A program made the position numbers and the translations under genes. From contig JAFGQU010000004.1 of NCBI GenBank assembly GCA_016935525.1, positions 131,774 through 195,773 on the forward strand: a DNA stretch of 64,000 nt, written 5' to 3'. The notes beneath the pieces are model-generated. The model was not told the DNA's origin and ran no database searches. It saw only the letters and a list, made by a program, of their open reading frames with translations. The DNA is from Candidatus Omnitrophota bacterium (GTDB taxonomy: Bacteria > Omnitrophota > Gorgyraeia > Duberdicusellales > 4484-171). Every line of letters begins with the position of its first letter. Position 1 is the stretch's first letter. Shown piece after piece: positions 31,922-50,189 of the stretch.

Positions 31922-31939
31922 AATTTTAGTTTTATAATG

Positions 31940-32022
31940 GTCACACGACACATAGTCACATAGACACACGTAAAAAAATATGGATCTTATACGTGTGACG
32001 TGTGACGTGTGACTTTGTGACC
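31940..32022. repeat. REP-like GTGAC-heptamer palindromic element
   Basis: ggtcacacgacacatagtcacatagacacacg - taaaaaaatatggatcttat - acgtgtgacgtgtgacgtgtgactttgtgacc. Lies between the aldolase stop and the ALDH start. Confidence 0.8.
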
Positions 32023-32023
32023 T

Positions 32024-33046
32024 TCATTCTACCGGCGCTTCTTCCCATAATTTGAAGGTGCGTACCATCACCGGGTACCACCGGCTCATCTTCGCAAAAT
32101 CACCTTTGGTCTTCACCTTCCCCTGAGTCGATGCGACAAAAGGATCGATCTCTTTATTGAACACTTTTTTAAGGACTTCCGGTTTACCGATGATCACAAA
32201 TTCCGCATCATCACAGTCGTCATCACGGACTATCCGGCCCTGTTCATAACAGAACCGCATGACTTCATCCGTATCCTGATTTTTTACCGCAAGCGTACAG
32301 GTCAATCCGTATTGTTTCCCTAAAGCTTGAGCTTGTTCGTCATTATTGACCAGTTCAGTAAGCCGCCCGCGGTGCGCCGCCGATAACATCTTATAGGTCT
32401 TCGACACACGCTGAGCATGTAATATCGGCTGTGTTTCCTGAACATGCAATCCGGCGGAAACCGCCTGGCTTTTAGTAATCAGATTTACTTTTGTCTGTTC
32501 TTCAATCAATTCCAAAAGGCTCACCGCTTCTTTGAATTCTTTCCCTATCGCCACGACCCCATGATACCGCAGTACCGTAATATTATTAGCCTCAAGCGCC
32601 GCCACGACCGGTTGTATATCGGTGACCGTAGGCGTATTCTGGGGTATGACCCGGACATTACCCAGATAGAATTTCGCTTCAAACGAAAATATATCCAGCG
32701 TATCGAAATAATGAAAAAACGCGGTCGTACACGGAGAATGGCTGTGGACTACGGTCTGGATATCGGGAAGCGACCGATACACCGCGAGGTGCAGATCTTT
32801 TTCACTGGACGGGGCCGATTCATTTCCCGCGATGAGATTGCCGTCGATATCGACACTCACGATATCGTCATAAGTCAAATGCCCCAAATAACAATCATGC
32901 CGGGTGATAAGGATGTGATTGGGGCCGATACGGCACGACAGGTTGCCGCTGCGGGCAGTGATCAACCCTTTTTGATAAAGGATATTCGCCCAATAAATGA
33001 TCTCTTTTTTTTCTCGTTCACACTTCACTGCCAGGCACCTCCTCAC
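32024..33046 (-). CDS. Class II aldolase/adducin-family protein fused to a C-terminal SCP2-like domain
   Basis: N-terminal half with GNLSCRIGPNHILIT...HSHSP, as in MtnB/FucA-type aldolases. C-terminus ...QGKVKTKGDFAKMSRW resembles the SCP2 sterol-carrier signature. Confidence 0.65.
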   Translation of the reverse strand: MRRCLAVKCEREKKEIIYWANILYQKGLITARSGNLSCRIGPNHILITRHDCYLGHLTYDDIVSVDIDGNLIAGNESAPSSEKDLHLAVYRSLPDIQTVVHSHSPCTTAFFHYFDTLDIFSFEAKFYLGNVRVIPQNTPTVTDIQPVVAALEANNITVLRYHGVVAIGKEFKEAVSLLELIEEQTKVNLITKSQAVSAGLHVQETQPILHAQRVSKTYKMLSAAHRGRLTELVNNDEQAQALGKQYGLTCTLAVKNQDTDEVMRFCYEQGRIVRDDDCDDAEFVIIGKPEVLKKVFNKEIDPFVASTQGKVKTKGDFAKMSRWYPVMVRTFKLWEEAPVE

Positions 33047-33500
33047 CGATTGTTTCGCGTTCAGAATGTATTATATACTTCTTTGACCGTTCATCTACAA
33101 CAAAATTATGTCCCGCCAGGGTCGAAGCATCCCGGTCAAAACCGGAAAGATCGTATTCCCCTTCAGCAAGGATACATACCGGCACCCGGTGGATTTCACT
33201 TAACAGCGCCGCGTATGAAGCCCCGGTCATCCCTTCCGGCCGCAAGGAACCTTTACGGCAGAAAAGAAACGTCTTTTTTATCTTTTTCGTATAGAAAAGA
33301 ATACCGATCATATTGTCGGTACAATATACCGCCGGGATGTAGTGTGAGGAAAGAAGCGGTAGATTATGGTGGATCCCGACACAATACGGCCGCTGTTCCG
33401 GGACGATCACCAGAGCGTCTTCATCCTTTAAGCAGGCAATATGTTCGTGTGAGATGATTCCCCATACCAACACCGCATTTTTAATCGTTTCAAGTTTCAT
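33018..33500 (-). CDS. Hypothetical protein
   Basis: 160-aa ORF in operon position, overlapping its neighbours. No recognised motif. Confidence 0.3.
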   Translation of the reverse strand: MKLETIKNAVLVWGIISHEHIACLKDEDALVIVPEQRPYCVGIHHNLPLLSSHYIPAVYCTDNMIGILFYTKKIKKTFLFCRKGSLRPEGMTGASYAALLSEIHRVPVCILAEGEYDLSGFDRDASTLAGHNFVVDERSKKYIIHSERETIGEEVPGSEV

Positions 33501-34402
33501 TGTTTCATCGGTAATTCTAAAGATTTTGTGATCAATCGGCCGGGCACCACATCAAATGCTGGATATACCGCGTCCTGGCCGTTACTCCACTTCTCAATAT
33601 AAGAAAACACCTCGCGCGGCGGCCGTTCTTCGATCTCGATACTGTTCACATCGATATCGCGGGGATATTGAGTAAGCGCGTAAAACGGGATATTGAAATG
33701 ACGGGCAAGGCACCCGAGGGCATACGTCCCGGTTTTATTGATAATATCTCCGGTCTTCGTCGCCCGGTCGGCACCGACCACGACACAATTCACTTTTTGT
33801 TTTTTCATAAGTAAAGCCGCCTGATTATCGCAGAGGAGATAACAAGACAGGTTGTTTTTCCGTAACTCCCAAAAGGTGATCCGGCTGCCCTGCAGGTAAG
33901 GCCGGGTTTCACATACGTAATAAGAAACGTGTTTACCCGAAGATTCCAATGCTTCAGCAAGATATAACAATTCTCCGTTGACGTTACATATCGTAAGGAT
34001 ATGCGCCTCTTGCGGCAGGAGTCCGGCAAGAGTAGTTGCCCTTAATTTACGGGCCCGGTCGAAATTCGTGATGAATCCGGAAACGATCTTATCCAGCGGC
34101 GCGCCGGATGCGCGGTAACGTTTTATTAATCCGTTTAAAAACAAAAAATCGAATGTAGGACGGGTCTTTTGGAATTTCCCGGCGATCTCATCGCTCGCAC
34201 ACGAATTTTCAAAAAGCACGCAACAATAGAAAAATAAAAGCACCTGGCCTAATGAACGGGTCTTCATCTGGCCTAACACACCCAAGGCGTCATCAAGAGT
34301 TTTTACCGTGATATACTCACACGTATAAGGGATCTTAGTCTCATCCAGGACTTGTATAGTATTTTCCGTTAAGCTGACCGGAAAAAGCAAAGGGCTATCC
34401 AT
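33497..34402 (-). CDS. eIF-2B-family sugar-phosphate isomerase (MtnA / ribose-1,5-bisphosphate isomerase-like)
   Basis: GADRATKTGDIINKTGTYALG and a C-terminal PAFDVVPGRLIT, characteristic of MtnA-type isomerases. Confidence 0.7.
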   Translation of the reverse strand: MDSPLLFPVSLTENTIQVLDETKIPYTCEYITVKTLDDALGVLGQMKTRSLGQVLLFFYCCVLFENSCASDEIAGKFQKTRPTFDFLFLNGLIKRYRASGAPLDKIVSGFITNFDRARKLRATTLAGLLPQEAHILTICNVNGELLYLAEALESSGKHVSYYVCETRPYLQGSRITFWELRKNNLSCYLLCDNQAALLMKKQKVNCVVVGADRATKTGDIINKTGTYALGCLARHFNIPFYALTQYPRDIDVNSIEIEERPPREVFSYIEKWSNGQDAVYPAFDVVPGRLITKSLELPMKQ

Positions 34403-36192: not shown

Positions 36193-37653
36193 TTATATAT
36201 GTTTTTCTCCCTTCACCGCGCCTTCTTCCCATTGGGAGACCCCGCGCATCACGTCCTGAAAACACAGTTTGGCTAATTGATCGAACTGGCTGTACATGAT
36301 CCGTTGGACCCGTCCAGGTTTTGAGAAAAATTCGCGCATACACCATGCACCCAATCTTCCCAGATCTTCTATGGAAAGATGATCGGTCGGCATCACCGGG
36401 TGCAAAAAATCCCATTTAAGAAAATCGATCTTTTTCGGATCGATGATCCCTTTCGCCATCCCCCGTTTCCATATCGGTGAGTTCGGCGCCGGAGTCACAT
36501 ATCCGATCCATAAGATATCGGGATCGACTTCGTCGGTAAACTCAAACCGCTGTTTCACGATCGCTTCGGTATCATAATCAAACCCCATCATGATATCGGC
36601 GACTACCGCGACATTGTTCCGGCGTAATATCTCGATGGTCTTTCTGATCTGTTCGATGGTAATCCCTTTGGCGATCTTCTTAAGTTCTTCCGGTGTGGTC
36701 ACCTCTATTCCAAATACTCCGATAAACAGACCGGTCTCTTTCATCAGCGGCAGGATCTCTTCACAGTTTACCCAATCGATCGCCCGGCCTAAAGAGACCC
36801 ATTTGATCGGATTGCCTTTTTCTTTTTTCAGGTCACAGAACTTTTTAACTCTTTCGGGATTCACGTTAAAATTATCGTCCTGGATGACCACGACTTTCGT
36901 GCCGAACTTATGATGAAGTAATTCGAGTTCTTCGATCACCCGTTCGGGAGATTTTGCCCGCCACTTCAAAAAATCTTCCGGGTGCCGCGGATCATACTGG
37001 TCCCATTCGTAACAGAACGTACAGGCCGAAGGGCACCCGCGGGAGGTCACCATTTCCACAAACGGTTTCCAGTGAGTATGGCCCACATACTTATCCATCG
37101 GGAAAAGGTCGTACGCCGGGAGCGGAAGGCTGTCCAGGCATACATTAAGCGGCCGGTGAGGGCCCATGACCGGTTTACCGTCGACGCGGGAAGAGACCCC
37201 GGCAAGGTCTTTGACCGGTTTTTTCTCGTCGATCGTCGTGATCAGATCATGGAACGCTTCTTCTTCAGCCATCACCACATAATCGATCGCCGGGTTCTGT
37301 TCCAGAGTAAATATCGGCATAGAAGAATACCATAATCCTCCGACAATGATCTTGGTATCAGGCAATGCCTGTTTTATCCGGGAAGCCGCTTCATTGAAAT
37401 ACCAGAGGATCGCGAACCCTCCGTAAGAATGGAGCATATCACCCAGCATTACCACATCCGGATTTTTCTCTTTTACCATGTGGACCATCTGGTCCATAGG
37501 TATTTCCAGGACGCGGCAATCGAGCACTTCCAGATCGTCATACCCTTTTTCCCGGACATAGGCACCCCACTGAGCATACAGCTGGTTAGGCGCGCGATGG
37601 ATACCATGAGTCGCCCATGCTCCCAACTTCGGCATCACAAACAATATTTTCAT
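36193..37653 (-). CDS. B12-binding-domain radical SAM enzyme (class B)
   Basis: N-terminal Rossmann-like B12-binding region, then SRGCPSACTFC (CX3CX2C). 486 aa. Confidence 0.75.
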   Translation of the reverse strand: MKILFVMPKLGAWATHGIHRAPNQLYAQWGAYVREKGYDDLEVLDCRVLEIPMDQMVHMVKEKNPDVVMLGDMLHSYGGFAILWYFNEAASRIKQALPDTKIIVGGLWYSSMPIFTLEQNPAIDYVVMAEEEAFHDLITTIDEKKPVKDLAGVSSRVDGKPVMGPHRPLNVCLDSLPLPAYDLFPMDKYVGHTHWKPFVEMVTSRGCPSACTFCYEWDQYDPRHPEDFLKWRAKSPERVIEELELLHHKFGTKVVVIQDDNFNVNPERVKKFCDLKKEKGNPIKWVSLGRAIDWVNCEEILPLMKETGLFIGVFGIEVTTPEELKKIAKGITIEQIRKTIEILRRNNVAVVADIMMGFDYDTEAIVKQRFEFTDEVDPDILWIGYVTPAPNSPIWKRGMAKGIIDPKKIDFLKWDFLHPVMPTDHLSIEDLGRLGAWCMREFFSKPGRVQRIMYSQFDQLAKLCFQDVMRGVSQWEEGAVKGEKHI

Positions 37654-37765: not shown

Positions 37766-38539
37766 TCATTTATTTGGATGTTCCTGTGTAAACGGAATCA
37801 CCGGTTTGGTCCAGGGAGTCTGTTGATTGATTACGGCAAGTTCCAGAGGATTCACGTTTGCTTCCTGGGTAAGCGCGAACATGACCGTATCGGCAACCGA
37901 TTCCACCGAACACAATCTATCGTTATCTGACGTCACTTCATTGAGTTTTCCGGTAAGCGGGGTCTTGGTCACTCCCGGAAAGATGGAAGTCACCTTAATC
38001 CCGAAATCACGCATTTCCCAGAAAAGGCCTTTGGCAAACGCGCGTAACGCTACTTTCAGCGAGGTATATACAATGAAATTGCGCGGCGGCGGATCGACCA
38101 TCACCGAACCGCTGGTGATATTCACGATATGGCCGGATTCCTGTTCTTTCATCTGGTTGACTACCAGCCGGGAAAGCATCACGTAACTATAATAATTGGT
38201 ATACATCACTTTTTCAATATCCTCAATGGGTTGTTGCCAGAACGGATACTGACTGGAAACACCCGCACCATTGATCAATACGTCTATCTTTTTAAACCGA
38301 GTGAGCGCAGTCTCAACCAGATTTTCAAGATCCTCGCGCTTGGTCACATCGCAACGGACACAGATCACTTTGTCTTTATTGGGTAAAGAGGCTTTCAACT
38401 CATCCAATACTTCAATCCTGCGGGCGGCAAGGACTAACGTCGCGTTACTTCGGGCTAATTTCTCAACGATGGCCTTTCCGATCCCGCCGGATGCACCGGT
38501 CACAATACATACCTTATTTTCTAACTGCACATGGTTCAT
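37766..38539 (-). CDS. Short-chain dehydrogenase/reductase, candidate ketoreductase
   Basis: TGASGGIGKAI Rossmann motif. YxxxK region present. 257 aa. Confidence 0.8.
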   Translation of the reverse strand: MNHVQLENKVCIVTGASGGIGKAIVEKLARSNATLVLAARRIEVLDELKASLPNKDKVICVRCDVTKREDLENLVETALTRFKKIDVLINGAGVSSQYPFWQQPIEDIEKVMYTNYYSYVMLSRLVVNQMKEQESGHIVNITSGSVMVDPPPRNFIVYTSLKVALRAFAKGLFWEMRDFGIKVTSIFPGVTKTPLTGKLNEVTSDNDRLCSVESVADTVMFALTQEANVNPLELAVINQQTPWTKPVIPFTQEHPNK

Positions 38540-38565
38540 ATGTCTTCCTCCGATCTTTTCTGTCG

Positions 38566-39690
38566 TTACGAATGAGCCAAGGATTTAGGCAATAAAAATC
38601 CCATTACTAAAAGCGCTGCCCCGACAATAAGAAAATGGGTTTGAAACCCTAAGTGAGAGATAGAGATCCCTCCGGCGGCGGCACCGATCCCGCCGGCAAA
38701 AAAACGTAACGCGCTGTTAAGGCTTGAGGAATCTCTTAATATCTTATCGGGAAAATGGGTAAGATGCGATGATAACCCCACGTGCGTCAACGCCCAGCCG
38801 CCACCCCAAAAAAGCATTACCATAAAAAGCGCCGAATAGAGCCGCAAAAAGAACAGGATACCGCAAAAAAGAGCCATCACCATAAACCCTATCCGGGCAA
38901 GATGGATATTGCCGATACGGGCGGCAAGTATCCCGCCTAAGAATTCGGCGCCGGTCGCACTTACCGTAGATACAGTAAGGATAGAACTGATCAACACCTG
39001 GGTCAAACCGTACTGGATCTTGAAATACACGCCTAACCATTGCTGAACACTGTGATAAAAAAAACTGACCAGGATGATAACGATAAAAAAGTTAAGCGCC
39101 CCCCTATCGCGAAACGTATCTACATAACTGACTTTAAAACTCTCCCGGCGAAAATCGAATTCATCAAGGGCTATCGGTATAATCAAAAGCATCAGAAAAC
39201 TCATCCCGGCCGGAATAAGATAAAGCCCGCGCCACGGGATAAACCCGCTCAAGAATACGCTCACACAGGTCGACACATACGAAATCGCGAATAAAGTGCC
39301 GATATATTTGGATTTCTCGTTTTGGGGGACGCTTTTACCTATGGTAATCAGGATCAACGGCACAAAACTACAACCAAAACATCCCATAAGGAACCGGAAT
39401 ATATACGCCTGCGGCAAGGTGCTTGAGAAGGCAAATCCGAACGTGGAAAGGCTATATCCGGCCATGGTAAAAAGCAATATTTTTTTCACGGCCATGATCC
39501 GGGTAAGCGGAGACCAAAGGAGAGCGCACACGCCGTAAGGAAGCATATAAAGCCAGATAAGCCTTGCCGCCTGAACCGGAGGCACTGCGAAATAGAGAGC
39601 AAACTGGGGGACTAACGCCGCCATTGCCGCCACTCCGAAAGAAAGCGTAAAGAAACTGACACAGAAAAGCGAAAAACTATTTTTAGACAT
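38566..39690 (-). CDS. MFS transporter
   Basis: 12 predicted TM segments with MFS-like loop motifs. Confidence 0.75.
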   Translation of the reverse strand: MSKNSFSLFCVSFFTLSFGVAAMAALVPQFALYFAVPPVQAARLIWLYMLPYGVCALLWSPLTRIMAVKKILLFTMAGYSLSTFGFAFSSTLPQAYIFRFLMGCFGCSFVPLILITIGKSVPQNEKSKYIGTLFAISYVSTCVSVFLSGFIPWRGLYLIPAGMSFLMLLIIPIALDEFDFRRESFKVSYVDTFRDRGALNFFIVIILVSFFYHSVQQWLGVYFKIQYGLTQVLISSILTVSTVSATGAEFLGGILAARIGNIHLARIGFMVMALFCGILFFLRLYSALFMVMLFWGGGWALTHVGLSSHLTHFPDKILRDSSSLNSALRFFAGGIGAAAGGISISHLGFQTHFLIVGAALLVMGFLLPKSLAHS

Positions 39691-40120
39691 GCACTTCTTG
39701 TTCGATCAACTCTTTAAATCGTTTCAGATTTTCCTGAGAATGGTTGTTAATTATCTCTTCGACCTGCGCGTCGTTGAATTTCGCTTTTTTATCCATAGAA
39801 AAATCCTGGATCCATTTCATCTCGATCCCGCCGGAGGTTTCGCGGTAAAGCCAGATGATCTTCATATATTCGAAAGGGAACATCGGTTCAAGACGGCAGG
39901 CATAGGCATATTTATCTTCTTTACCCAACAGGCGATAAGAAATCCAGGAATTCCCGTTCTGATGCGTGAGCTGGAACGTGATCTTATTGCCTTCCTGACG
40001 GATCACTTCCGAGGCGGTATATTCGCTAAAAAACTCTTTCCAACGGGAGATGTCATTACTCATATCAAATACTTTTTCGTAAGGAGCGTTAATTACGATT
40101 GAATTTACGGTATGCGCCAT
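39683..40120 (-). CDS. SRPBCC (Bet v1/START-like) polyketide cyclase/aromatase-like protein
   Basis: 145 aa with an SRPBCC-like pattern (NAPYEKVFDMSNDISRWKEFF...). Start codon ATG at 40120. Confidence 0.5.
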   Translation of the reverse strand: MAHTVNSIVINAPYEKVFDMSNDISRWKEFFSEYTASEVIRQEGNKITFQLTHQNGNSWISYRLLGKEDKYAYACRLEPMFPFEYMKIIWLYRETSGGIEMKWIQDFSMDKKAKFNDAQVEEIINNHSQENLKRFKELIEQEVHV

Positions 40121-40137
40121 TTTTCCTCCTTCTTTTT

Positions 40138-40237
40138 CGTAACGCGTAACGCGGCACGCGACACGCGCATAAAGAAAAATATTAAAATCGATTTCCTCTC
40201 CCCAAGACGCGTTACGCAGGACGCATGACGCGTTACG
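40138..40237. repeat. Variant palindromic element built from ACGCGTTAC/GTAACGCG heptamers
   Basis: cgtaacgcgtaacgcggcacgcgacacgcgc - ataaagaaaaatattaaaatcgatttcc - gacgcgttacgcaggacgcatgacgcgttacg. Same architecture as the GTGAC family, with a different unit. Confidence 0.75.
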
Positions 40238-41039
40238 GGAGCATCGCGACCACTCTCGCCCAGGCCGCGCCGGTTTGCCGGATACGTACCGGCAGACAAC
40301 TGACGGTAAACCCGTGATCAGGCAATGCCCCTAAATTAGCCAGCCGTTCGATATGGATAAACTCCCGAGTGCGCCCGTAAAAATGAGCCGGCCATAAATA
40401 GCGGGCTTCTCTTTTTTCTAAAAAGTCTTTCATCATGTATTTATAAGGACGGTCTATCCCCATGGTATCCACACCGAATATTTTTATCTGGTGATCAAGG
40501 AGATAATCGATCGCCGAATTGTCCAGCCCCGGATAATCGGAAAAATAACGGGGAGTGCCGTATAACGTATCCGAACCGGTATAGATAAGTACGATATCCA
40601 ACGGTTTTAAAGTATACCCTATCTTTTCAAGCGCTCGCCGGATATCTTCGGCGCCGATCGTCTCAAAAGGCTGCTTATAACAAAGGTCGAGGCGTACTCC
40701 GTTCTGCACGCACCATTCTAAGGGTATTTCTTCGGCGGTTTTCGACGGACGGCCTTCGGATCGGCTTCCGTAATGGAACGAATAATCAAGATGAGTCCCT
40801 ACGTGCACCGGGGAATGGACTATTTCCAAAGAAAGAAACTCTTCGTCGGGAAGATCGTCTTTAGTGATCATCCGCCGGCCGAACAGATAGGCGAGCTTCC
40901 CCTTGAGGGTCCTGGACATCAATACTTTATTTAGTTTTTTTATACCGTCACGGTGAGAAATCCGTTCGATATCGACATCATGGACTTCAAAAGCTTTTTC
41001 ATCAATGGGAAGGCTCAGGTCTATTATTCTCATGGTCAC
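40233..41039 (-). CDS. Putative-cyclase-family protein (kynurenine formamidase fold)
   Basis: HSPVHVGTHLDYSFHY metal-binding motif of the cyclase family. The probable true start is the ATG at 41033. The 3' end overlaps the ACGCGTTAC repeat. Confidence 0.65.
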   Translation of the reverse strand: MTMRIIDLSLPIDEKAFEVHDVDIERISHRDGIKKLNKVLMSRTLKGKLAYLFGRRMITKDDLPDEEFLSLEIVHSPVHVGTHLDYSFHYGSRSEGRPSKTAEEIPLEWCVQNGVRLDLCYKQPFETIGAEDIRRALEKIGYTLKPLDIVLIYTGSDTLYGTPRYFSDYPGLDNSAIDYLLDHQIKIFGVDTMGIDRPYKYMMKDFLEKREARYLWPAHFYGRTREFIHIERLANLGALPDHGFTVSCLPVRIRQTGAAWARVVAMLP

Positions 41040-41081: not shown

Positions 41082-41318
41082 TTACGACTGTTTTTTATTT
41101 TCAATAATCCCCACGATCTCCAGCGGAGTCGAGCTTTTTCCTATCTCGTCCGTTTCTATCTTTACCGCGAACTGTTTACCCAGCGCGACCGTCAATTCGA
41201 CCATTTCAGTTGAATCTACTCCGATAGAATCATAGAGCGTTTTATCTTCAATAAGTTCATCCTCACCCACATCCAATGTCTTGGCAATAGCCGAGATCAC
41301 TTCTTCTTTAAGTCCCAT
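41082..41318 (-). CDS. Acyl carrier protein
   Basis: IGVDSTEMVEL phosphopantetheine-attachment motif. Strong RBS AAAGGAGGG before the MGLKEE start. Confidence 0.75.
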   Translation of the reverse strand: MGLKEEVISAIAKTLDVGEDELIEDKTLYDSIGVDSTEMVELTVALGKQFAVKIETDEIGKSSTPLEIVGIIENKKQS

Positions 41319-41425
41319 GGTCCCTCCTTTTTGAAACACAGATAGTCACGGATTAAGATCCACAAGATGGTCACAGACGCAAAAATCTGCGATCATCAGT
41401 TCAAAATCAGCGATTATCTGCGCAA

Positions 41426-42661
41426 TCATGCCTTTTCAATAGCCAACACCACATTAATCCCGCCCCGGCCGCGCGCCAAAATAAGCGCTTTTTTTATTTT
41501 TCTCGACCGGGAAACGTTGGGAGTATAATCGAGATCACAGTAAGGGTCAGCCATCTCATAATTGATCGTAGGCAATATAGTCTCGTGCTCCATAGAAAGC
41601 AATGTCGAGATCAGATCAAGTGAAGTTTGAGCACCCAGGAGGTTTCCGTACATACTCTTGGGAGCGCTCAATGCGATACCACCGATCTTTTTACCGAACA
41701 CATTCTTTAGGGCCATTGTCTCATTACTGTCTCCGATTGTGGTCGCATCACCGTCGAGACAGATATAATCGATATCCTCCTTTTTCCATCCGGCATCATT
41801 GATACATTCTTCGATGGCATACTGGAAACTTTCCGGATCCAACCGGTACCGGGCATAATGGTACCCGTCACAACTTACTCCTATCCCGCGCAGGTATCCG
41901 TAGACCGGCGCGCTCCGATTACGGGCGTGGGCTTCTTTTTCGAACGTCACGATTCCGGCCCCTTCGCCCAACACAAACCCGTCACGGTTTAAATCATAGG
42001 GACGATACGCTTTTTGAGGATTAAGGTTATTTTTAGAAAGCTGACCGCAACTTGACGCCGAAAGGAGCGCATAAGGCGTAATCGGAGCTTCCATCCCGCC
42101 GGCAAGCACATAATCGTTTTTCCCCTCGGCGATCACTTTTGCTCCGTACCAAAGGGCAAGGGCCGATGAAGCTTTATCGGCGACGATGGTCTTACTATAC
42201 CCTTTAAACCCGTAATAAATAGTCACCTGCCCCTGAGGAGCCGCCGGAAACCAGGCACTGGCCATATAGGGCGAAATACCTTCACGGCCTTCCAAATACA
42301 TATCCCGCAGTTCAGTTTCGGCAAAAAGCCATCCTCCCAGAGCGTTTCCCATGAATACTCCGACTCTATTCTTATCCACCTGGGTATGATCTATCCGGGC
42401 ATCCTGTAACGCTTGTTCAGACGCTACCAGCGCCATATGAGAAAACACATCGATCTTTTTGATCAGCCGGCTCGATAAATGCGTGTAATAATCGAGTTCA
42501 TGTACCTGGCCGGCAATACGGGAAGGATAGAGTTTTGCGTCGAAGCGGGTGATCTCATCGACAAACGAACGGGCCTGTTTTAAATTCGCCCAAAACGTTT
42601 CTTTCTTCATCCCGCAGGGAGACACTACTCCTAATCCGGTAATAGCAACTGATTCTTTCAT
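41426..42661 (-). CDS. Ketosynthase-beta / chain-length-factor-like KS paralog, catalytically inactive
   Basis: Thiolase-fold KS in which the catalytic Cys position reads ADKASS (Lys). The two catalytic His positions read DGDATT and GNLLGAQ (Asp, Asn). Confidence 0.8.
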   Translation of the reverse strand: MKESVAITGLGVVSPCGMKKETFWANLKQARSFVDEITRFDAKLYPSRIAGQVHELDYYTHLSSRLIKKIDVFSHMALVASEQALQDARIDHTQVDKNRVGVFMGNALGGWLFAETELRDMYLEGREGISPYMASAWFPAAPQGQVTIYYGFKGYSKTIVADKASSALALWYGAKVIAEGKNDYVLAGGMEAPITPYALLSASSCGQLSKNNLNPQKAYRPYDLNRDGFVLGEGAGIVTFEKEAHARNRSAPVYGYLRGIGVSCDGYHYARYRLDPESFQYAIEECINDAGWKKEDIDYICLDGDATTIGDSNETMALKNVFGKKIGGIALSAPKSMYGNLLGAQTSLDLISTLLSMEHETILPTINYEMADPYCDLDYTPNVSRSRKIKKALILARGRGGINVVLAIEKA

Positions 42662-43932
42662 AAAGAAACTCCGTTTTCTTTGGTGTTAAAGCGTTTGAAA
42701 ATGATTGATGAGTGGATTCCTGAGAAACCACTACTTGTCTTTAAAATATAGTTCGGCATCAATTCCCGTTTGACATTGGGAATATAATCCAGGTCGCATT
42801 GCGGATCCGGTTCTTCCTGGTTGATCGTAGGAGGCAAATACCCGTTTTGAAAGATCATTCCGCACAGCACACTCTCCACCGCATTAGCCGCAGCTAAAGG
42901 ATGGCCGATCATCGATTTTATCGAACTGATCGGGACTTTATAGGCGTACTCTCCGAACACTCCTTTATACGCGTTGGTCTCAAACACATCGTTCTGGCGG
43001 GTTGAAGAACCGTGAGCGTTGATATAATCTATATCCTCGTTCTTTATTCCGGCATCGGCTATGGCTTCCCGGATACACCGTTCCATCGCTTCGCCGCTTT
43101 CGGGAAGATCAGTCATATGGTACGCATTACAGCTGGTACCGTATCCGACGACTTCTCCGTAAATAGGCACCCCTCTTTTTTTTGCGTGTTCTAACTCTTC
43201 TAAAATAAGGACGCCGGCGCCTTCGGAAATCACAAATCCGTTCCGTTTGTTATCAAACGGACGACTCGCTTTATGTGGTTCATCGTTATTTTTCGCAAGT
43301 ACGTTCACGACATCAAATGCTCCAAAAGTAATCGGGCAGACCGGGGCTTCACTTGCTCCGGCAATGACCAGGTCCTGCCGGCCGTCACGGATAAGTTCAT
43401 AGCTAAATCCTAACGAATCGGTCCCGGCGGTACATCCGGTAGAAACCGTACAATTGAACCCCTGAGTGCCGTACAGAGCGCTGATCTCACTGGAGGGGGT
43501 ATTGAACATCGCCGCATCGTAAAGATACGGCCTCCCTTTTCGGGGATCGATCGGATTTTTACCCCATCCGGTTACCCGTAAAAATTCTTCTTCCATAAAC
43601 CGGGTCCCACAGATGGCATTGGCAAGGATTACCCCGCATTTTTTCCGATCAAGTCCATTAAAATCTATTTTTCCGTCGGTCACCGCCTGGACCGCCGCAG
43701 CCAGGGCGAACTGGACGTACCTATCCATACGGAAATGGTCTTTAATCCCGAATTCTTCCGGATCAAAATCAAGATATTGCGAAGCGATCTTCGAGACAAA
43801 AAGACTTACGTCAAAATTTTCTACCAGTTCGACACAGGGTTTCCCGGAGATCAGATTATCGTAAAACGTATTTTTATCCGCACCGGCACCGCAGACAACG
43901 CCTAATCCCGTTATCACTACTCTTCTTTTCAT
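42658..43932 (-). CDS. Beta-ketoacyl synthase (KS-alpha)
   Basis: Catalytic Cys VSTGCTAGTDS, HGSST and GHPLAAA His motifs. Translationally coupled to the CLF gene. Confidence 0.85.
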   Translation of the reverse strand: MKRRVVITGLGVVCGAGADKNTFYDNLISGKPCVELVENFDVSLFVSKIASQYLDFDPEEFGIKDHFRMDRYVQFALAAAVQAVTDGKIDFNGLDRKKCGVILANAICGTRFMEEEFLRVTGWGKNPIDPRKGRPYLYDAAMFNTPSSEISALYGTQGFNCTVSTGCTAGTDSLGFSYELIRDGRQDLVIAGASEAPVCPITFGAFDVVNVLAKNNDEPHKASRPFDNKRNGFVISEGAGVLILEELEHAKKRGVPIYGEVVGYGTSCNAYHMTDLPESGEAMERCIREAIADAGIKNEDIDYINAHGSSTRQNDVFETNAYKGVFGEYAYKVPISSIKSMIGHPLAAANAVESVLCGMIFQNGYLPPTINQEEPDPQCDLDYIPNVKRELMPNYILKTSSGFSGIHSSIIFKRFNTKENGVSL

Positions 43933-44531
43933 TCTATTCTCCTTACCTTAAATTTCATATGCCCTCCGTCAGGACAGGCCGTACCGGTCTTACAGTGTTC
44001 GTTTTCTTCAAAAGTGAACTTCGCGCCGAAATTCAACGCAAACAGGACCGGAAACAGGACGCTGTAAGCCGCGCCACAAAACTCCGGAGGTGTTTTTAAC
44101 CCTTTTACCTGCCATTTGTCGCCCGGCTTGTAACCGAACGTACAATGTCCGCACGTCTCCTGCACCTCGATTTCCAGCTGTTTAGGATTGGGGCCTTTCG
44201 GTTTTTCAGCCCTGGGTTCGACAATTACATTACCGGCATCATCTAATATTTCGACTTTAAACGTAAGTTTGGCGTTATCGGGACAGGTCACATTGATCGA
44301 TCTGGTATTCTCCATGAACGGGAATTTCGCGCCGAAGGTAAGCGCGTAGAGACAGGGAAACGCCGATTGCGACAATCCCAGGCAGAAATCTTCGGGCGGA
44401 TGCGTAAAATCTTTCAAGATGAGCTCATCCCCTATCTTATAATTATGATAACAATACCCTCTTATCTCAAGAACAGTCAACTTCAGCTTGGGAAACGTTA
44501 CTTTTTGAGAGACTTCTTTTTTTTCATCCAT
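43929..44531 (-). CDS. Hypothetical protein made of two tandem roughly 95-aa Cys-rich domains
   Basis: Internal duplication. Both halves share C-x-H...K-x-GD...PE-x-FC...P-x-L-x-AL-x-FGAKF-x-F-x-EN...CPD...FKV. Confidence 0.5.
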   Translation of the reverse strand: MDEKKEVSQKVTFPKLKLTVLEIRGYCYHNYKIGDELILKDFTHPPEDFCLGLSQSAFPCLYALTFGAKFPFMENTRSINVTCPDNAKLTFKVEILDDAGNVIVEPRAEKPKGPNPKQLEIEVQETCGHCTFGYKPGDKWQVKGLKTPPEFCGAAYSVLFPVLFALNFGAKFTFEENEHCKTGTACPDGGHMKFKVRRIE

Positions 44532-45537
44532 ACGATTTCTCCTCTACCTTCGTCAATTCTTTCATGAATTCCTCAACAGATAAAAATGTATTTGTTTTTT
44601 CGACCCGGTGGACGAGTTCTACCATCTTTTTATTCAACGGCGCCTGGCTCATCGATTTTTCAGCCAAACCGACTATCTCTCCGTTAATATAATCTATTTC
44701 TGAAGGTTTTCCCCTCCGAATACTCTGTAATATAGATCCATAAAGCGGTTCTTCGCTTAAAGAAGCCATCACTTTCGAAAAAAGCACTGCCGCCTCTTTA
44801 GGAGGCATAGTGACTAACCCCTGGATACGTTCTTTAGGATATCCCGGAAGGCTGACCAGTTCGATGCCGGCATCTTCTATGACCGAATATGCCTCCCGGT
44901 TTACATAAATCGCGCATTCCGCAATTTCAAGATTACTGAACGCATCCTGCAGGGAAACTCCCAACACCGCCGGTATACAATTATTAAGGTTCACGAATAT
45001 TTTAAGATACTTCGCGCCCCGGATGTTTTTCTCATTCACCACGCGGGTAACCGGGCTAAGAATGCGTTCTATCTGGTCGAACTGCCAGCGGGGATTTTTA
45101 AAAAGGGACCCCACCACAAGGCTTCCTTCGAAATTGTGTACTACGCGGTCCGGCGGATAAAATGTCGCGCCGAACATCACGATCCCGGTGATGATCCGGG
45201 AAGCATGAGAATAATTCTCTACAATATAATCGGCGGCAATCCCGTTTTGAGTCGTGAGGATGAACGAATCTTTAAGATACGGCCCATTTTCTTTAAGAAC
45301 CGCCTCAAGATCGGCGATCTTGGTGGCAATTACCGCTACATCGACCGGCTCAGTCAACACGGTCTGCACATTGACTTTGACATTATGGGTCCCGCGTACG
45401 CCTTCGATCTTCAACCCTTCACGGGTCAACGGTTCTTTTTGATACTCCTTGACGATACCTATTACTTCACTGCGGCCGGAAAGATATCCTAAAAAAGCCC
45501 CGCCGATCGCTCCACATCCAAGTATCGCTACTCTCAT
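44524..45537 (-). CDS. 2-dehydropantoate 2-reductase-family (ApbA/PanE) oxidoreductase
   Basis: N-terminal MRVAILGCGAIGGAF Rossmann motif. KPR-like C-terminal domain. Confidence 0.7.
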   Translation of the reverse strand: MRVAILGCGAIGGAFLGYLSGRSEVIGIVKEYQKEPLTREGLKIEGVRGTHNVKVNVQTVLTEPVDVAVIATKIADLEAVLKENGPYLKDSFILTTQNGIAADYIVENYSHASRIITGIVMFGATFYPPDRVVHNFEGSLVVGSLFKNPRWQFDQIERILSPVTRVVNEKNIRGAKYLKIFVNLNNCIPAVLGVSLQDAFSNLEIAECAIYVNREAYSVIEDAGIELVSLPGYPKERIQGLVTMPPKEAAVLFSKVMASLSEEPLYGSILQSIRRGKPSEIDYINGEIVGLAEKSMSQAPLNKKMVELVHRVEKTNTFLSVEEFMKELTKVEEKSYG

Positions 45538-45986
45538 TGCCCCGCCTCACAATATTTTCTGAATGCCCCAAGCACTCGCTCAATATTCATACAATGCAGA
45601 CGTTTATATACCATGTTCCAAAGCATACGGGAACATCTCCCTTTCAATTCGCAACAAAAACGGTAGACGACTTCTATCTGGGCCCGGTCCTGGTGGACAA
45701 AAAATTCTTCATACCCGCCTTTAAACATCCCGTCAAGAAACGTACGGCGTAGATATTTTTTCTCTCGGTCGACGACTTCATTACGTTTATGCCATGCGGG
45801 CCCTAACGGGAACCGCGCCTTTTGCCAATACAGCGTGCCTTCTTTGATGTCACCGGAAAGGTTAATAAACCTCATCATCATTTTTTCAGGCCACCACTCT
45901 GACTGTGGACCCAGAAGCAATTCTTCAAAGACATCGATCCCGTTTCTTTGCAGTGAAAAAACGATATTTTGTTTAATCGTCTCCAT
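45534..45986 (-). CDS. Hypothetical protein
   Basis: 150-aa ORF, translationally coupled within the cluster. No confident motif. Confidence 0.35.
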   Translation of the reverse strand: METIKQNIVFSLQRNGIDVFEELLLGPQSEWWPEKMMMRFINLSGDIKEGTLYWQKARFPLGPAWHKRNEVVDREKKYLRRTFLDGMFKGGYEEFFVHQDRAQIEVVYRFCCELKGRCSRMLWNMVYKRLHCMNIERVLGAFRKYCEAGQ

Positions 45987-46245
45987 CTTCTATATATTGT
46001 TTGTAGGGAACCTCCAGCTGCTGAAACAGACGGCGCATCATGTCACGAAATGCCGGGGGCACCTCACAGAAAAAGGCTTTAATAAGATCTTCTTCCTCTA
46101 CGGTGCGGGAATCCCGCGCGCCGGCGATCGCTTCGGCAGATTCTTTCACCAGGTGTTCGGCGATCGAACGGTGAAATTGAGGAAGATTCCCGATCACTTT
46201 ATCAAAGATATCCTGGGCATTTTTAGCCCATGCAACTGATGCCAT
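45973..46245 (-). CDS. Hypothetical small protein
   Basis: 90-aa ORF in operon position. Confidence 0.3.
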   Translation of the reverse strand: MASVAWAKNAQDIFDKVIGNLPQFHRSIAEHLVKESAEAIAGARDSRTVEEEDLIKAFFCEVPPAFRDMMRRLFQQLEVPYKQYIEDGDD

Positions 46246-46246
46246 G

Positions 46247-46984
46247 TCATACTCCTTTCTCGATCAGACTGAACGCCCCGTTAATCATCTTCATCTCGGC
46301 TTCAAAATAACGATAATCGGTAAACCCCATCTGTCCGGTAATAAGGTTATCGGAAACCGCAAGGACCACCGCGACTTTCTTTTTATAGATATTCGCCAAG
46401 GTCACGAAAGGGCTGGTAACCATATCAACGGCGATAGCGCCTTTATCGATATAAGAATTTACTATATCTTTCGTTTCGCGAAATATCGCATCGGTTGTCC
46501 ATACCCCGCCGCGATGGGTACCGCTGATCTCCTTAAATGTATCGACCAACGACGAAGTCAACTGTCCATCTACCAGAGGCATATATTCATCGTCCACGTA
46601 ATACCGGGTAACCCCGTCACCCCTGATCACTTTATCGGCAACAATAAAATCACCGATCTCGATATCATCGCGCAGGGCTCCGCAGGAACCGATACGGATA
46701 AGCGTCTCTACTCCGGCGGCACAGACCAATTCGGTAATAAACGCCGAATCGGGAGCGTAAAACCCTCCGTTGCCGACGGTGACCCGTTTCCCTTTATACG
46801 TACCGGTCCAGAAAGTGTAGCCCAGAAAAGTAAAATTTTTTACGGGATCTTCAAGTTTATCGACACACATTTTAGCCCGTTGCGGTTGTCCGCTGATGAT
46901 CGCAGTGTGAGCAAAATCGCCGGGACGAAACTGCAAAGAGTCTAACAGGCCTTTCGGTTCCATATGGATCTCTCTGGTCATCAT
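46247..46984 (-). CDS. PNP/UDP-family nucleoside phosphorylase or nucleosidase
   Basis: PNP_UDP_1 fold pattern (GNGGFYAPDSAF, IRIGSCGAL, a VDMVTSP-like region). Confidence 0.7.
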   Translation of the reverse strand: MMTREIHMEPKGLLDSLQFRPGDFAHTAIISGQPQRAKMCVDKLEDPVKNFTFLGYTFWTGTYKGKRVTVGNGGFYAPDSAFITELVCAAGVETLIRIGSCGALRDDIEIGDFIVADKVIRGDGVTRYYVDDEYMPLVDGQLTSSLVDTFKEISGTHRGGVWTTDAIFRETKDIVNSYIDKGAIAVDMVTSPFVTLANIYKKKVAVVLAVSDNLITGQMGFTDYRYFEAEMKMINGAFSLIEKGV

Positions 46985-47002: not shown

Positions 47003-47107
47003 AGTCACAAGGTCACATAGTCACAGGTCACACGCAATAGTTACTTTGAGGTATTTTCTTGACGTGTGTCGTGTGACGTGTGTCGTGTGACGTGTGTCGT
47101 GTGACGT
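47003..47107. repeat. REP-like GTGAC element with a 14-nt GTGTGACGTGTGTC x3 right arm
   Basis: tagtcacaaggtcacatagtcacaggtcacacgc - aatagttactttgaggtattttctt - gacgtgtgtcgtgtgacgtgtgtcgtgtgacgtgtgtcgtgtgacgttg. The right arm lies inside the ligase 3' coding end. Confidence 0.8.
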
Positions 47108-48603
47108 TGCAATGCTTGTTTATCGATCTTTCCCGTACGGTTTTTCGGTAACGACGCTACAAATTCAAAATGGTGAGGCACCTTAAAATGGGCAAGAAAT
47201 TTTCTCAAAAATTCGCGCAGGTCCTGAAGCGATAACTGCTCGTTTTCCTTAAGGACGATGAACGCTTTGGGGACTTCACCGCGTAACGCATCGGGCATAC
47301 CGATAACCGCGACTTCTTTTATTTTAGGATGCCGCTGGATCTTTTCTTCGACTTCAGCCGAAAAAACTATCTCGCCGGCCACTTTGATCATATCTTTCTT
47401 ACGTCCTACGATATAAAACAAGCCGTCTTTATCGCAATACGCGATATCTCCGGTCTTTAACCACCCGTCTTCGGTAAGTACTTCTTTGGTCAATTCCTCT
47501 TCCTGATAGTACCCACGCATCACTCCTTTACCTTTTACCCATAATTCTCCCTGTGCATTCACGGCACACCGGTTACCTTCGGCATCAACGATCTTTGCCT
47601 GTAAATAAGGCGAAAATCCGCCGATACTATGGATCTTATGTATATCGTTGGGAGAATAAGTGTTGGGTGCGGATGTCTCAGTCATCCCCCATCCGTTTAA
47701 AAGCGCGGATTCAGGGCACATTTTCTTGAATCGTTCAAGAAGTACCGGCGAAGAGGGAGCCCCGAATACCACGGCCCAACGCAACGAGGAAAGATCGAAC
47801 TTCTCCTGCCCTTTTAAAGAAAGGATAGCGACAAACATCGCCGGCACAATACAGAATATAGTCCCCCGGTAACGTTCAATAGTATGCAAGAATTCTAAAG
47901 GTTGAAATCTCTCCATCAATACCAGCGGTGAAGCAAAACAAAGCATGAGCAGGATATAATCTACACCGGCAATATGAGAGAACGGCACCCCGGCACAGAC
48001 AAAAATATCCTTATCGGTTATCTTAAGAAAATAATCCATGGTTTCCATGGGACTATCCAGATGAGCATAGTTAAGCATCACTCCTTTAGGATGGCCGGTA
48101 GAACCGGAAGTATAGAAAATAGCGGCAAGATGTCCGGGATCGATCGGGGAAGAAGGTTCCCGGGTATCTTTCTGTAACACTATCCGGTCCCAAGAAATCG
48201 CCTCAGCAGTCTCCTCTCCTAAGGTTATGATATGGCTTAATGTCGGACAGGCTTTTTTGATCTGATCGATATCGATCCCTTTTTTAGGCTGGAGGATCAG
48301 AGCCCGGGTGCGGCTATGGGTTACAAACTGAATGATCTCGTCCTGCGTCAACATGAAATCAAAAGGGATCACCGTCGCTCCCAGGCTGAATACACCGAGA
48401 AAACTCATCAGCGTTTCGGGGATATTCGGCAGGTAGAGAGCTATGTTATCATCCGGTGAGATACCGTGTTTGAGAAGATGATTCGCCAGGCCAAACGCGG
48501 TATCCCTGATCTGGGGAAACGTTATCTGCCGGTCTTTATACATGAGCATCGGCCTCGTTTGATAACGTTCACTTTGCTGAATAAGGAGTTTTTTTACATC
48601 CAT
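47041..48603 (-). CDS. AMP-dependent acyl-CoA/acyl-ACP ligase
   Basis: IFYTSGSTGHPKGVML AMP-binding motif and a C-terminal GKIDKQAL. The last roughly 20 codons (HVTRHTSHDTR...) are read from the repeat array. Confidence 0.8.
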   Translation of the reverse strand: MDVKKLLIQQSERYQTRPMLMYKDRQITFPQIRDTAFGLANHLLKHGISPDDNIALYLPNIPETLMSFLGVFSLGATVIPFDFMLTQDEIIQFVTHSRTRALILQPKKGIDIDQIKKACPTLSHIITLGEETAEAISWDRIVLQKDTREPSSPIDPGHLAAIFYTSGSTGHPKGVMLNYAHLDSPMETMDYFLKITDKDIFVCAGVPFSHIAGVDYILLMLCFASPLVLMERFQPLEFLHTIERYRGTIFCIVPAMFVAILSLKGQEKFDLSSLRWAVVFGAPSSPVLLERFKKMCPESALLNGWGMTETSAPNTYSPNDIHKIHSIGGFSPYLQAKIVDAEGNRCAVNAQGELWVKGKGVMRGYYQEEELTKEVLTEDGWLKTGDIAYCDKDGLFYIVGRKKDMIKVAGEIVFSAEVEEKIQRHPKIKEVAVIGMPDALRGEVPKAFIVLKENEQLSLQDLREFLRKFLAHFKVPHHFEFVASLPKNRTGKIDKQALQRHTTHVTRHTSHDTRQENTSK

Positions 48604-48699: not shown

Positions 48700-49242
48700 C
48701 TATGCTTTTTCCGGGGGGGGATCAAATTTTTGCTGCTTTACCGTATCAAACATCTCTTTAAGAAACGTCCTTTCGGTAGCCACTAAGCCTAAATGATGCC
48801 CAATAAGAAGCTGAATGTTCCGCGGTGAAGATTTTAATTCCTGCCGCTTGGTGAGAAGCCAATTTTCGGCTTCTCTTAAAAACCGCATCCGCAGCCGCAG
48901 AAGCGGGAGGACCTCCTCTTTATTGAGAAAAGAAAGAAAATAAAGCGGGATGTCTATTTCGATAAAAGGCCGCCGTTCAGAAAGTAGAGCTTCTTTTGCC
49001 AGACGGGAAAATTCTCTCTCACCGCGGGAAGTAATACAATAGGTATATTTACGCAGGCGGGCCTGCGGCACCTCTTTTCTTTCGACAAACCCTTCTTTTT
49101 CCATCTTCTGAAGCGGGTAATAGATCGACCTGGTCTCTAACTGAGAAAACAATCCCAACTCTTTGGTGATGAATTTTTTGATATCGTATCCGGTAGCGGG
49201 GTGTTTCTTCAAAATACCCAGAATAATAAATCGCTGTATCAT
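48700..49242 (-). CDS. PadR-family transcriptional regulator
   Basis: N-terminal winged-helix GILKKHPATGYDIKKFI...YYPLQKMEKEGFV. 180 aa. Confidence 0.8.
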   Translation of the reverse strand: MIQRFIILGILKKHPATGYDIKKFITKELGLFSQLETRSIYYPLQKMEKEGFVERKEVPQARLRKYTYCITSRGEREFSRLAKEALLSERRPFIEIDIPLYFLSFLNKEEVLPLLRLRMRFLREAENWLLTKRQELKSSPRNIQLLIGHHLGLVATERTFLKEMFDTVKQQKFDPPPEKA

Positions 49243-50189
49243 TCTTTAAACATTCCCAGACTTCTGAATTTTTGATAGCGGTTCGCGAGTAAAGAATCGA
49301 TATCGGTCTTTTTAAGTTCGGCAAGATGATGGATAAGCATATCTTTCAGGTTAAGCCCGGCCTGATGAGGGTCACGATGGGCGCCGCCTTCGGGTTCGGA
49401 AATGATCCCGTCAACTACCCCTAATTCGATAAGTTCGGGAGCGGTCAGTTTAAGAGTTTTGGCGGCATCGGGAGCGCGCCGGGAATCTTTCCAGAGGATC
49501 GCGGCACATCCTTCCGGAGATATTACCGAATAATAGGAATACTCCATAATAAATACTTTATCGCCGACCCCGATACCTAACGCTCCCCCGGAACCGCCTT
49601 CCCCGATCACTACCACTATAATCGGAGTACGTATCGTAAACATATCGCGGATGTTTTCGGCAATCGCTAAAGCCTGGCCCCGTTCCTCCGCCCCGATTCC
49701 CGGATAGGCACCCGGCGTATCCACCAAACAGACGATCGGTAAAGAAAACCTTTCGGCAAGACGCATCGCTCGCATTGCTTTACGGTATCCTTCAGGATGG
49801 GCGCAGCCAAAATTCCTTTCGATATTTTCTTTGGTATCTTTCCCTTTTTGATGCCCGATCAGGACGATCTTTTCCTGCTCGATCCGGGCAAGGCCGGTGA
49901 TCAAAGCTTTATCGTCTCCGAACAGCCGGTCGCCATGTAGCTGAATAAAATTATTCATCATCGAATTGACATAATCGAGCGTCGTAGGCCGCTGGGAATG
50001 GCGGGAAATCTGCACTTTCTGCCAGGGCGTCAGTTGAGAATATATCTCCCGTTTCAGACTTTTCAATTTCTCCTGGAGTTTCTCAAGCTCTGAGGAAAGA
50101 TTTACTTCTTTATCGCGTGAGAATTCATTCAATTCTCTGATTTTATTTTCTAATTCTTCAATAGGTTTTTCAAAATCCCAGTATTGCAT
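49239..50189 (-). CDS. accA: Acetyl-CoA carboxylase carboxyltransferase alpha subunit
   Basis: MQYWDFEKPIEELENKI...GAYPGIGAEERGQ, canonical AccA blocks. Confidence 0.9.
   Translation of the reverse strand: MQYWDFEKPIEELENKIRELNEFSRDKEVNLSSELEKLQEKLKSLKREIYSQLTPWQKVQISRHSQRPTTLDYVNSMMNNFIQLHGDRLFGDDKALITGLARIEQEKIVLIGHQKGKDTKENIERNFGCAHPEGYRKAMRAMRLAERFSLPIVCLVDTPGAYPGIGAEERGQALAIAENIRDMFTIRTPIIVVVIGEGGSGGALGIGVGDKVFIMEYSYYSVISPEGCAAILWKDSRRAPDAAKTLKLTAPELIELGVVDGIISEPEGGAHRDPHQAGLNLKDMLIHHLAELKKTDIDSLLANRYQKFRSLGMFKE

Follow-up and report, generated by a model that had tools for sequence, protein, structure and literature searches.

A 64,000-nucleotide (nt) stretch of DNA from a Candidatus Omnitrophota bacterium (GenBank assembly GCA_016935525.1, contig JAFGQU010000004.1, positions 131,774 to 195,773), referred to here as the window, encodes a 200-amino-acid (aa) protein directly upstream of the ketosynthase (KS) subunit KS-alpha of a type II polyketide synthase (PKS)-like operon. 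The protein is a two-domain (pseudo-dimeric) member of the TIGR04076 family, and this family membership is near certain. Surveys of its relatives show that it belongs, as a conserved accessory component, to a type II PKS-like operon found across the phylum Omnitrophota. Its tightest partner is an ApbA/PanE-like reductase encoded immediately upstream, a partner that a preliminary description of this DNA had not mentioned. We tentatively propose, with slightly less than even confidence, that the tandem protein serves the ApbA-type reductase as an accessory or redox subunit with a metal centre (probably iron-sulfur, Fe-S), in a pathway that uses KS and acyl carrier protein (ACP).

A Two-Domain Member of the TIGR04076 Family

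The gene and its two domains are located as follows:

43929..44531 (stop codon included), minus strand: tandem TIGR04076 protein, 200 aa; from the open reading frame (ORF) and the TIGR04076 hidden Markov model
44232..44495, minus strand: domain 1, the diverged copy, residues ~13-100; from the repeat alignment, profiles and structural model
43932..44192, minus strand: domain 2, the canonical copy, residues ~114-200; from the family alignment and the model of this half

The protein had been described as a tandem duplication of a domain of roughly 95 aa. The duplication is borne out by three comparisons. BLASTP aligns residues 15-97 with residues 117-200 (84 columns, 40% identity, E=3e-19). When an alignment of 55 homologues is divided into one profile per half, hhalign matches the two profiles with a probability of 99.8% (E=7.6e-29, 81 columns). 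The NCBIfam model TIGR04076 matches the protein in two stretches, with 98.3 bits for the whole protein (E=2.9e-28; curated cutoff, 33 bits). In the better stretch, residues 15-97 cover positions 3-90 of the 91-position profile. The repeat thus survives profile self-alignment, and a chance repeat is rejected by the BLASTP and hhalign results. All of the motifs listed earlier (C-Y/G-H, K-x-GD, PPE-FC, FP-L-AL-FGAKF-F-EN, CPD, and KFKV) are present in the half-half alignment. The domain itself is ~85-88 aa, smaller than first given.

The preliminary description could assign the protein to no characterised family. A named family does fit, although TIGR04076 is itself uncharacterised. An identical protein (P0001, 100%) from a MAG (metagenome-assembled genome) is deposited as 'TIGR04076 family protein [Candidatus Omnitrophica bacterium]', and relatives carry the JGI name 'uncharacterized repeat protein (TIGR04076 family)'. 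The protein thus adds one more member to a catalogued family, under whose name its exact sequence already stands in the databases. Pfam yielded no family at E<=1. The PDB was searched by sequence with both the single protein and a profile of 55 sequences, and no meaningful match or solved homologue emerged.

A protein search found 855 homologues of the 200-aa protein. In an exhaustive search of 1.84 billion representatives, 184 TIGR04076 relatives were recovered at E<=0.001, the majority of them single-domain proteins of ~88 aa that align to the second half (residues 117-200). One-, two- and four-copy versions of the family occur. In the library searched, TIGR04076 appears in catalogue entries and in two papers that touch on it briefly, with no assigned function. 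One of these papers guesses fimbriae for a TIGR04076 protein (PMC12487256).

Conserved Residues and Predicted Structure

Several Cys and His residues had been noted as conserved. This conservation is real, but across the family only three Cys in each domain never vary. These are C27, C50, and C83 in domain 1 and C130, C152, and C186 in domain 2, and within a domain they are spaced by about 22 and 33 residues. In an alignment of 35 family sequences (consensus GxCxxGHKxGD...TPxxxC...GGxFP...CPD), the three Cys and one Gly are the only invariant columns, and the CPD motif is near-invariant. More positions are fixed among the 55 tandem homologues. Domain 1 has C27 Y28 H29, D41 F42 T43 H44, C50, and C83 P84 D85, whereas domain 2 has C130, C152, and C186 P187 D188. 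The CYH and DFTH motifs of the first copy are thus invariant within the tandem clade.

An AlphaFold2 model of the whole protein, built with the 55 homologues, has a predicted local distance difference test score (pLDDT) of 93.2 and a predicted template modelling score (pTM) of 0.88. The second half modelled by itself gives a pLDDT of 92.3. Both halves are predicted to fold as beta-beta-alpha-beta-beta units packed against each other. In domain 1, the predicted strands span residues 15-23, 36-39, 78-82, and 89-96, and the helix spans residues 51-65. In each domain, one invariant Cys follows strand 1, another sits at the N-terminal end of the helix, and the third follows strand 3. Because of these positions relative to the predicted secondary-structure elements, the three Cys of each domain probably lie at the same pole.

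A Foldseek search of the PDB with the predicted model retrieved no structure at E<0.001. The nearest folds are small alpha+beta domains, namely the N-terminal domain of XdhC, the SPAK CCT domain, and FKBP-like domains. The XdhC chain 3on5_B ranks second, with 9-10% identity and an E-value above 0.001. On the model, this likeness would be a putative fold-level similarity and does not indicate family membership.

The XdhC likeness raises the idea that the tandem protein is a remote relative of the small XdhC/CoxI domain and acts as a cofactor-handling chaperone, which would deliver metal-sulfur, cobalamin or pterin to a partner enzyme. We consider this improbable. Its appeal lies in the Foldseek rank and in one TIGR04076 fusion encoded beside aldehyde:ferredoxin oxidoreductase (AOR), a tungsten/molybdenum-pterin enzyme. 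However, the protein has no Pfam match to XdhC_CoxI (PF02625) or XdhC_C (PF13478) and no sequence match in the PDB, and no pterin-dependent enzyme turned up among the scanned genes of the operon.

Association with a Ketosynthase Pair in Omnitrophota

The tandem gene had been described as translationally coupled upstream of the KS-alpha gene. In the sequence, the two genes overlap:

43929..43932, minus strand: ATGA overlap of the tandem-gene stop and the KS-alpha start, read from the sequence
42658..43932, minus strand: KS-alpha, 424 aa, with an intact Cys-His-His triad (Pfam ketoacyl-synt N and C)
41426..42661, minus strand: KS-beta, a partner resembling a chain-length factor (CLF), 411 aa, 35% identical to KS-alpha

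The TGA of the tandem gene (43929-43931) overlaps the ATG of KS-alpha (43930-43932), and a Shine-Dalgarno-like run, AAGGAGA, lies ~7 nt upstream of this ATG within the last codons of the tandem gene.

Co-occurrence with KS pairs is strongly supported by surveys in both directions. The first covers 80 species-representative loci with tandem relatives of 53-83% identity, nearly all from Omnitrophota MAGs, some of them labelled Planctomycetia. KS-alpha lies directly downstream on the same strand in 68 of the 80, is not there in 11, and the remaining locus is too short. An ApbA-like gene is directly upstream in 67 of the 68 KS-linked loci, and a DUF2621-like gene is present in 60 of them. Downstream sequence reaches >=9 kb in 38 loci, and 37 of these contain a gene for a B12-binding radical S-adenosylmethionine (SAM) enzyme (B12-rSAM). 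Where the KS start can be placed (58 loci), the gap to KS-alpha is <=30 nt in 35, and the genes overlap in 10. About five further loci are consistent with the same 4-nt overlap. The conserved gene order begins with the DUF2621-like gene, in some cases an SRPBCC-like gene, ApbA, the tandem gene, KS-alpha, and KS-beta. It continues after KS-beta with B12-rSAM (one subclade), ACP, cyclase, SRPBCC cyclase, a major facilitator superfamily (MFS) transporter, a short-chain dehydrogenase/reductase (SDR), and an amidohydrolase.

The reverse survey examined 80 metagenome loci centred on KS-alpha relatives, 65 of which have enough upstream sequence. The tandem gene is present in 55 of these and absent from 10 (L128-L130, L132, L136, L138, L139, L148, L151, and L164). 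In the loci without it, ApbA abuts KS-alpha or an NTF2-like ORF fills the slot, as with the 151-aa NTF2-like (DUF4440/SnoaL_3) ORF of L128 and L129.

The arrangement also extends to distant relatives. L169, from an organism of 62-64% GC, encodes a 42%-identical tandem protein with a 4-nt overlap with a KS/KS pair. Upstream are a phosphopantetheinyl transferase gene and a DUF2621-like gene, and ApbA is absent. The DUF2621-like homologue (positions 2119-2379 of L169) directly precedes the tandem gene and is 33% identical to its counterpart (E=1e-8). L171 encodes a 48%-identical tandem protein followed by the N-terminus of a KS. The contexts of four further relatives (P0122, P0154, P0339, and P0430) are short contigs or unrelated neighbours and were uninformative.

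A housekeeping role, in which a small protein is an incidental KS neighbour in this genome, is very improbable. Some tandem genes form an orphan clade with variable neighbours and >=80% identity between species, as such a role would have it. However, the order ApbA, TIGR04076x2, KS-alpha is found in 67-68 of the 80 species, and the gene occurs in 55 of the 65 KS-centred loci. The order is also kept down to 42% identity in a different GC class and is reinforced by gene fusion. The incidental-neighbour reading is contradicted by the co-occurrence counts and is rejected.

In the literature searched, the Omnitrophota cluster is so far catalogued only as 'Candidatus Omnitrophica KS-CLF' hits (PMC10132072). 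Literature searches combining Omnitrophota with polyketide or ladderane gave passing mentions and catalogue entries only. Taxonomic labels of the surveyed loci vary. Many loci are labelled 'uncultured Planctomycetia/Planctomycetales', and L035 (JAIWAR010000044.1), binned as 'Methanosarcinales archaeon', carries an Omnitrophota-type cluster with 57-83% protein identity. Its archaeal label is probably a case of mis-binning, which is relevant to reports of archaeal type II PKS hits (PMC10132072).

Coupling and Fusion to an ApbA-Type Reductase

On its other side, the tandem gene overlaps the reductase gene:

44524..44531, minus strand: 8-nt overlap ATGGATGA of the ApbA stop and the tandem-gene start, read from the sequence
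44524..45537, minus strand: ApbA/PanE-family NAD(P)H reductase, 337 aa (Pfam ApbA and ApbA_C; TIGR00745, 141.5 bits)

The ATG of the tandem gene is preceded by GAGGAGA. In 11 loci, ApbA and the two TIGR04076 domains share one reading frame (4 of 68 GTDB loci and 7 of 53 metagenome loci). A search with one ApbA-TIGR04076 chimera as the query found full-length ApbA-TIGR04076x2 fusions in at least 32 distinct clusters, with lengths of 531-548 aa and identities of 54-86%. They come from NCBI, JGI, ENA, and Logan assemblies, under the protein name '2-dehydropantoate 2-reductase'. A frameshift artefact is rejected, given this number of diverged full-length clusters from independent sources. A sizeable minority of lineages thus carry the two domains as a C-terminal extension of the reductase. 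Because recurrent fusion is a Rosetta-stone signal, the tandem protein is expected to work physically with the ApbA/PanE-type reductase.

Physical association could also have a purely structural purpose. The tandem protein might be a non-redox adaptor, with a structural zinc or no site at all, whose pseudo-dimer tethers the ApbA-type reductase, and perhaps ACP, to KS-alpha/KS-beta. Such tethering would channel a reduced starter or intermediate. We regard this as unlikely, though it accounts for several observations. The gene always lies between ApbA and KS-alpha, natural ApbA fusions exist, and adjacency to KS is kept without ApbA in L010 and L169. The nearest folds are non-redox domains, and it is established for the ApbA family that hydride transfer requires no electron carrier. 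Yet single-domain relatives and members of the orphan tandem clade are found with neither KS nor ApbA. Elsewhere the domain is fused to flavin reductase and to Fer4, which speaks for electron transfer, and the family is almost confined to anaerobes.

The Orphan Clade and a Possible B12-Radical-SAM Link

Eleven of the 80 tandem genes belong to the separate orphan clade, which has no KS or ApbA nearby. Its members are >=80% identical to one another across species and 56-61% identical to the KS-linked tandem proteins. Their neighbours include TPR, PilZ, and unknown proteins. Orphan-clade loci are L002, L014-L016, L018-L020, L022-L024, L028, and L029. The preliminary description called the module dedicated to the cluster. 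The linkage to KS is strong, but the word is too strong because this clade lies outside KS clusters and ~15% of the related KS clusters (10 of 65) lack the gene.

In 6 of the 11 orphan-clade loci, a B12-rSAM gene lies within 2.5 kb, whereas the background in the fetched DNA is roughly 6-12 such genes per Mb. The window has a single B12-rSAM gene. These observations hint that tandem TIGR04076 proteins are linked to B12-rSAM chemistry independently of PKS genes.

The tandem protein could accordingly be an electron donor or activation factor for the B12-rSAM enzyme, with its adjacency to KS reflecting operon history. We find this rather unlikely. It agrees with the near-constant rSAM gene in KS clusters with enough flank (37 of 38) and with the orphan-clade loci, and no other small redox protein was found among the scanned operon genes. 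In Bilophila, a TIGR04076 gene lies two genes from that of a radical SAM glycyl-radical activase (PMC8667426). However, L013 has the tandem gene and KS with no B12-rSAM gene within 10 kb, and B12-rSAM is retained in clusters without the tandem gene, such as L132. On these two loci, a dedicated B12-rSAM reductant as the sole role is rejected. In addition, the sampled single-domain members are not near radical SAM genes, and the background density is only roughly estimated.

TIGR04076 Domains in Other Contexts

The clearest electron-transfer context found for the domain is an operon in L170 (positions 565-3131), which is headed by a Flavin_Reduct-TIGR04076 fusion gene and also encodes a dicluster ferredoxin and AOR. 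A fusion of two TIGR04076 domains with DUF362 and Fer4 was also found. In Dehalococcoidales, a single-domain gene starts 22-37 nt after that of a 676-684-aa Fer4 and CCG (HdrD-like) protein, and in Butyricimonas a TIGR04076 gene follows a Flavodoxin_2 fragment. Named TIGR04076 members are almost all from anaerobes. They come from Clostridia, Bacteroidota, Caldisericia, WS2, Dehalococcoidales, Bilophila, and Methanobrevibacter, plus one Terriglobia MAG.

Together, the tri-Cys signature and the redox-type neighbours and fusions lend support to a putative metal or redox role. The earlier suggestion of a metal-binding or redox module thus gains circumstantial backing from the three Cys, the anaerobic hosts, and the fusions and neighbours, while the metal site itself stays putative.

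A Proposed Role for the Tandem Protein

In the reading we favour, the three Cys of each domain would hold a metal ion or a small Fe-S cluster, giving two sites per protein. The protein would then act as a metal-centre or redox accessory subunit of the ApbA-type reductase, and the tandem protein, reductase, and ketosynthase would be made in a fixed ratio. Two modes of action can be envisaged. The tandem protein may relay electrons, possibly towards the accompanying B12-rSAM enzyme, or it may dock the reductase onto the KS/ACP machinery.

Several observations weigh against this proposal. ApbA/PanE proteins are flavin-free hydride-transfer enzymes, for which a fused one-electron partner is biochemically odd. 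Because a one-electron carrier on ApbA is unexpected, the non-redox docking, rSAM-reductant, and XdhC-like alternatives keep their weight. The tandem protein has no canonical ferredoxin or rubredoxin Cys motif and no Pfam match to Fer4 or Rubredoxin. In addition, L010 has a KS-linked tandem gene without ApbA, L013 has one without a nearby B12-rSAM gene, and ~15% of related KS clusters do without the tandem gene altogether. Finally, start/stop overlaps are the general style of this operon and are therefore weak evidence for a physical complex.

The Operon in the Window

The remaining genes of the operon and its surroundings include:

41082..41339, minus strand: ACP (PP-binding domain)
37766..41039, minus strand: cyclase (PF04199), SRPBCC polyketide cyclase, MFS transporter, and SDR ketoreductase (domain matches; conserved order)
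36193..37653, minus strand: B12-binding radical SAM enzyme (Pfam B12-binding and Radical_SAM)
45534-45986: 150-aa ORF between the DUF2621-like gene and ApbA, with no Pfam or NCBIfam match
45973..46245, minus strand: DUF2621/PCP_red-like helical protein, 90 aa (domain match; co-conserved with the module)
47041..48603, minus strand: AMP-dependent acyl ligase (domain matches)

The best solved relative of KS-alpha is the anthraquinone KS AntD (6smo_B, 365 bits), which scores above FabF and the actinorhodin KS. In KS-beta, Lys, Asp, and Asn replace Cys167, His307, and His344, and no Gln is present. By these residues, KS-beta is a predicted inactive, CLF-like partner that lacks both the triad and the Gln typical of actinomycete chain-length factors. 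This would fit priming by the AMP-ligase of the cluster rather than by decarboxylation, and the AMP-dependent acyl ligase is a probable starter-activating enzyme. The counterpart of the 150-aa ORF in L132 has a faint SRPBCC/Polyketide_cyc2 match (E=0.014).

The B12-rSAM gene shares its operon with a further set of minus-strand genes at 30482-34402 and 46247-46984, which encode an aldehyde dehydrogenase, a class II aldolase with SCP2, two IF-2B/MtnA-like isomerases, and a PNP_UDP_1 phosphorylase. We take this set to resemble the 5'-deoxyadenosine/methylthioadenosine salvage pathway known as the dihydroxyacetone phosphate (DHAP) shunt, presumably as if it disposed of the by-product of the B12-rSAM enzyme. 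An MMPL/RND-type transporter and a LolA-like protein are encoded at the end of the operon, which starts after AccA (the alpha subunit of the acetyl-CoA carboxylase carboxyltransferase) and a PadR regulator (27107-30428 and 48700-50189). Judging from these genes, the operon may yield a lipid or pigment that is exported to the envelope, as opposed to a diffusible antibiotic. Elsewhere in the window, two adjacent paralogues of 518 and 513 aa (56487-58043 and 58161-59702) are GDSL-lipase-like and carry TPR.

A bolder extension of the proposed role appears possible to us but doubtful. TIGR04076 would be an unrecognised tri-Cys metal or Fe-S module of anaerobes. Its tandem form would make a flavin-free ApbA reductase metal-assisted and KS-coupled, and might serve as a reductant for B12-rSAM, in an ancient, phylum-wide type II PKS-like pathway of Omnitrophota for an exported envelope lipid or pigment.

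Comparison with Known Systems and Significance

The systematic coupling and fusion to ApbA and KS-alpha/KS-beta, like the Omnitrophota-wide cluster itself, appear undescribed in the literature searched. TIGR04076 is a widespread 'hypothetical' family of anaerobes, and this locus gives it concrete candidate functional partners through the recurrent ApbA/PanE fusion, the near-obligate KS-alpha/KS-beta adjacency, and the B12-rSAM link. The cluster is conserved in most of the Omnitrophota sampled, and hardly any biochemistry is available for this phylum. The fusions, co-occurrence, and conserved partners make both the domain and the pathway directly testable. They also flag an unannotated component, since genome-mining rules for type II PKS currently ignore TIGR04076x2.

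The closest relatives of the tandem protein are the single-domain TIGR04076 proteins, with which it shares the three Cys, the GxC...G(D), TP...C, and CPD motifs, and the predicted fold. Unlike these, the tandem clade has a fixed two-copy form with a diverged first copy. It is also tied to the ApbA and KS operon, whereas the sampled neighbours of single-domain members are unrelated.

XdhC is a molybdenum-cofactor maturation factor in which a small domain accompanies a Rossmann-type domain, a pairing that resembles the ApbA fusions described here. However, identity to XdhC/CoxI structures (2we7 and 3on5), presumably to their small domain, is 9-10%. Neither Pfam nor sequence comparison gives a signal, and the scanned genes of this operon revealed no Mo/W enzyme.

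Rubredoxin and ferredoxin modules fused to flavin reductases also exist, as in 'high-molecular-weight rubredoxin'. They are alike in placing a small domain with Cys ligands on an NAD(P)H-linked oxidoreductase, the metal site being putative in the present case. The Flavin_Reduct-TIGR04076 fusion beside ferredoxin and AOR mirrors this architecture. In contrast to rubredoxins and ferredoxins, TIGR04076 domains have neither CxxC knuckles nor the CxxCxxCxxxCP motif, contain three rather than four invariant Cys each, and are predicted to adopt another fold.

In actinomycete type II PKS clusters, TcmJ/WhiE-ORFII cupins are encoded just upstream of KS-alpha. The tandem protein occupies the same position, as a small, translationally coupled product encoded directly before KS-alpha. 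However, it is unrelated to these cupins in sequence and fold, with no cupin match, and it has a further link, in some cases a fusion, to an ApbA-type reductase.

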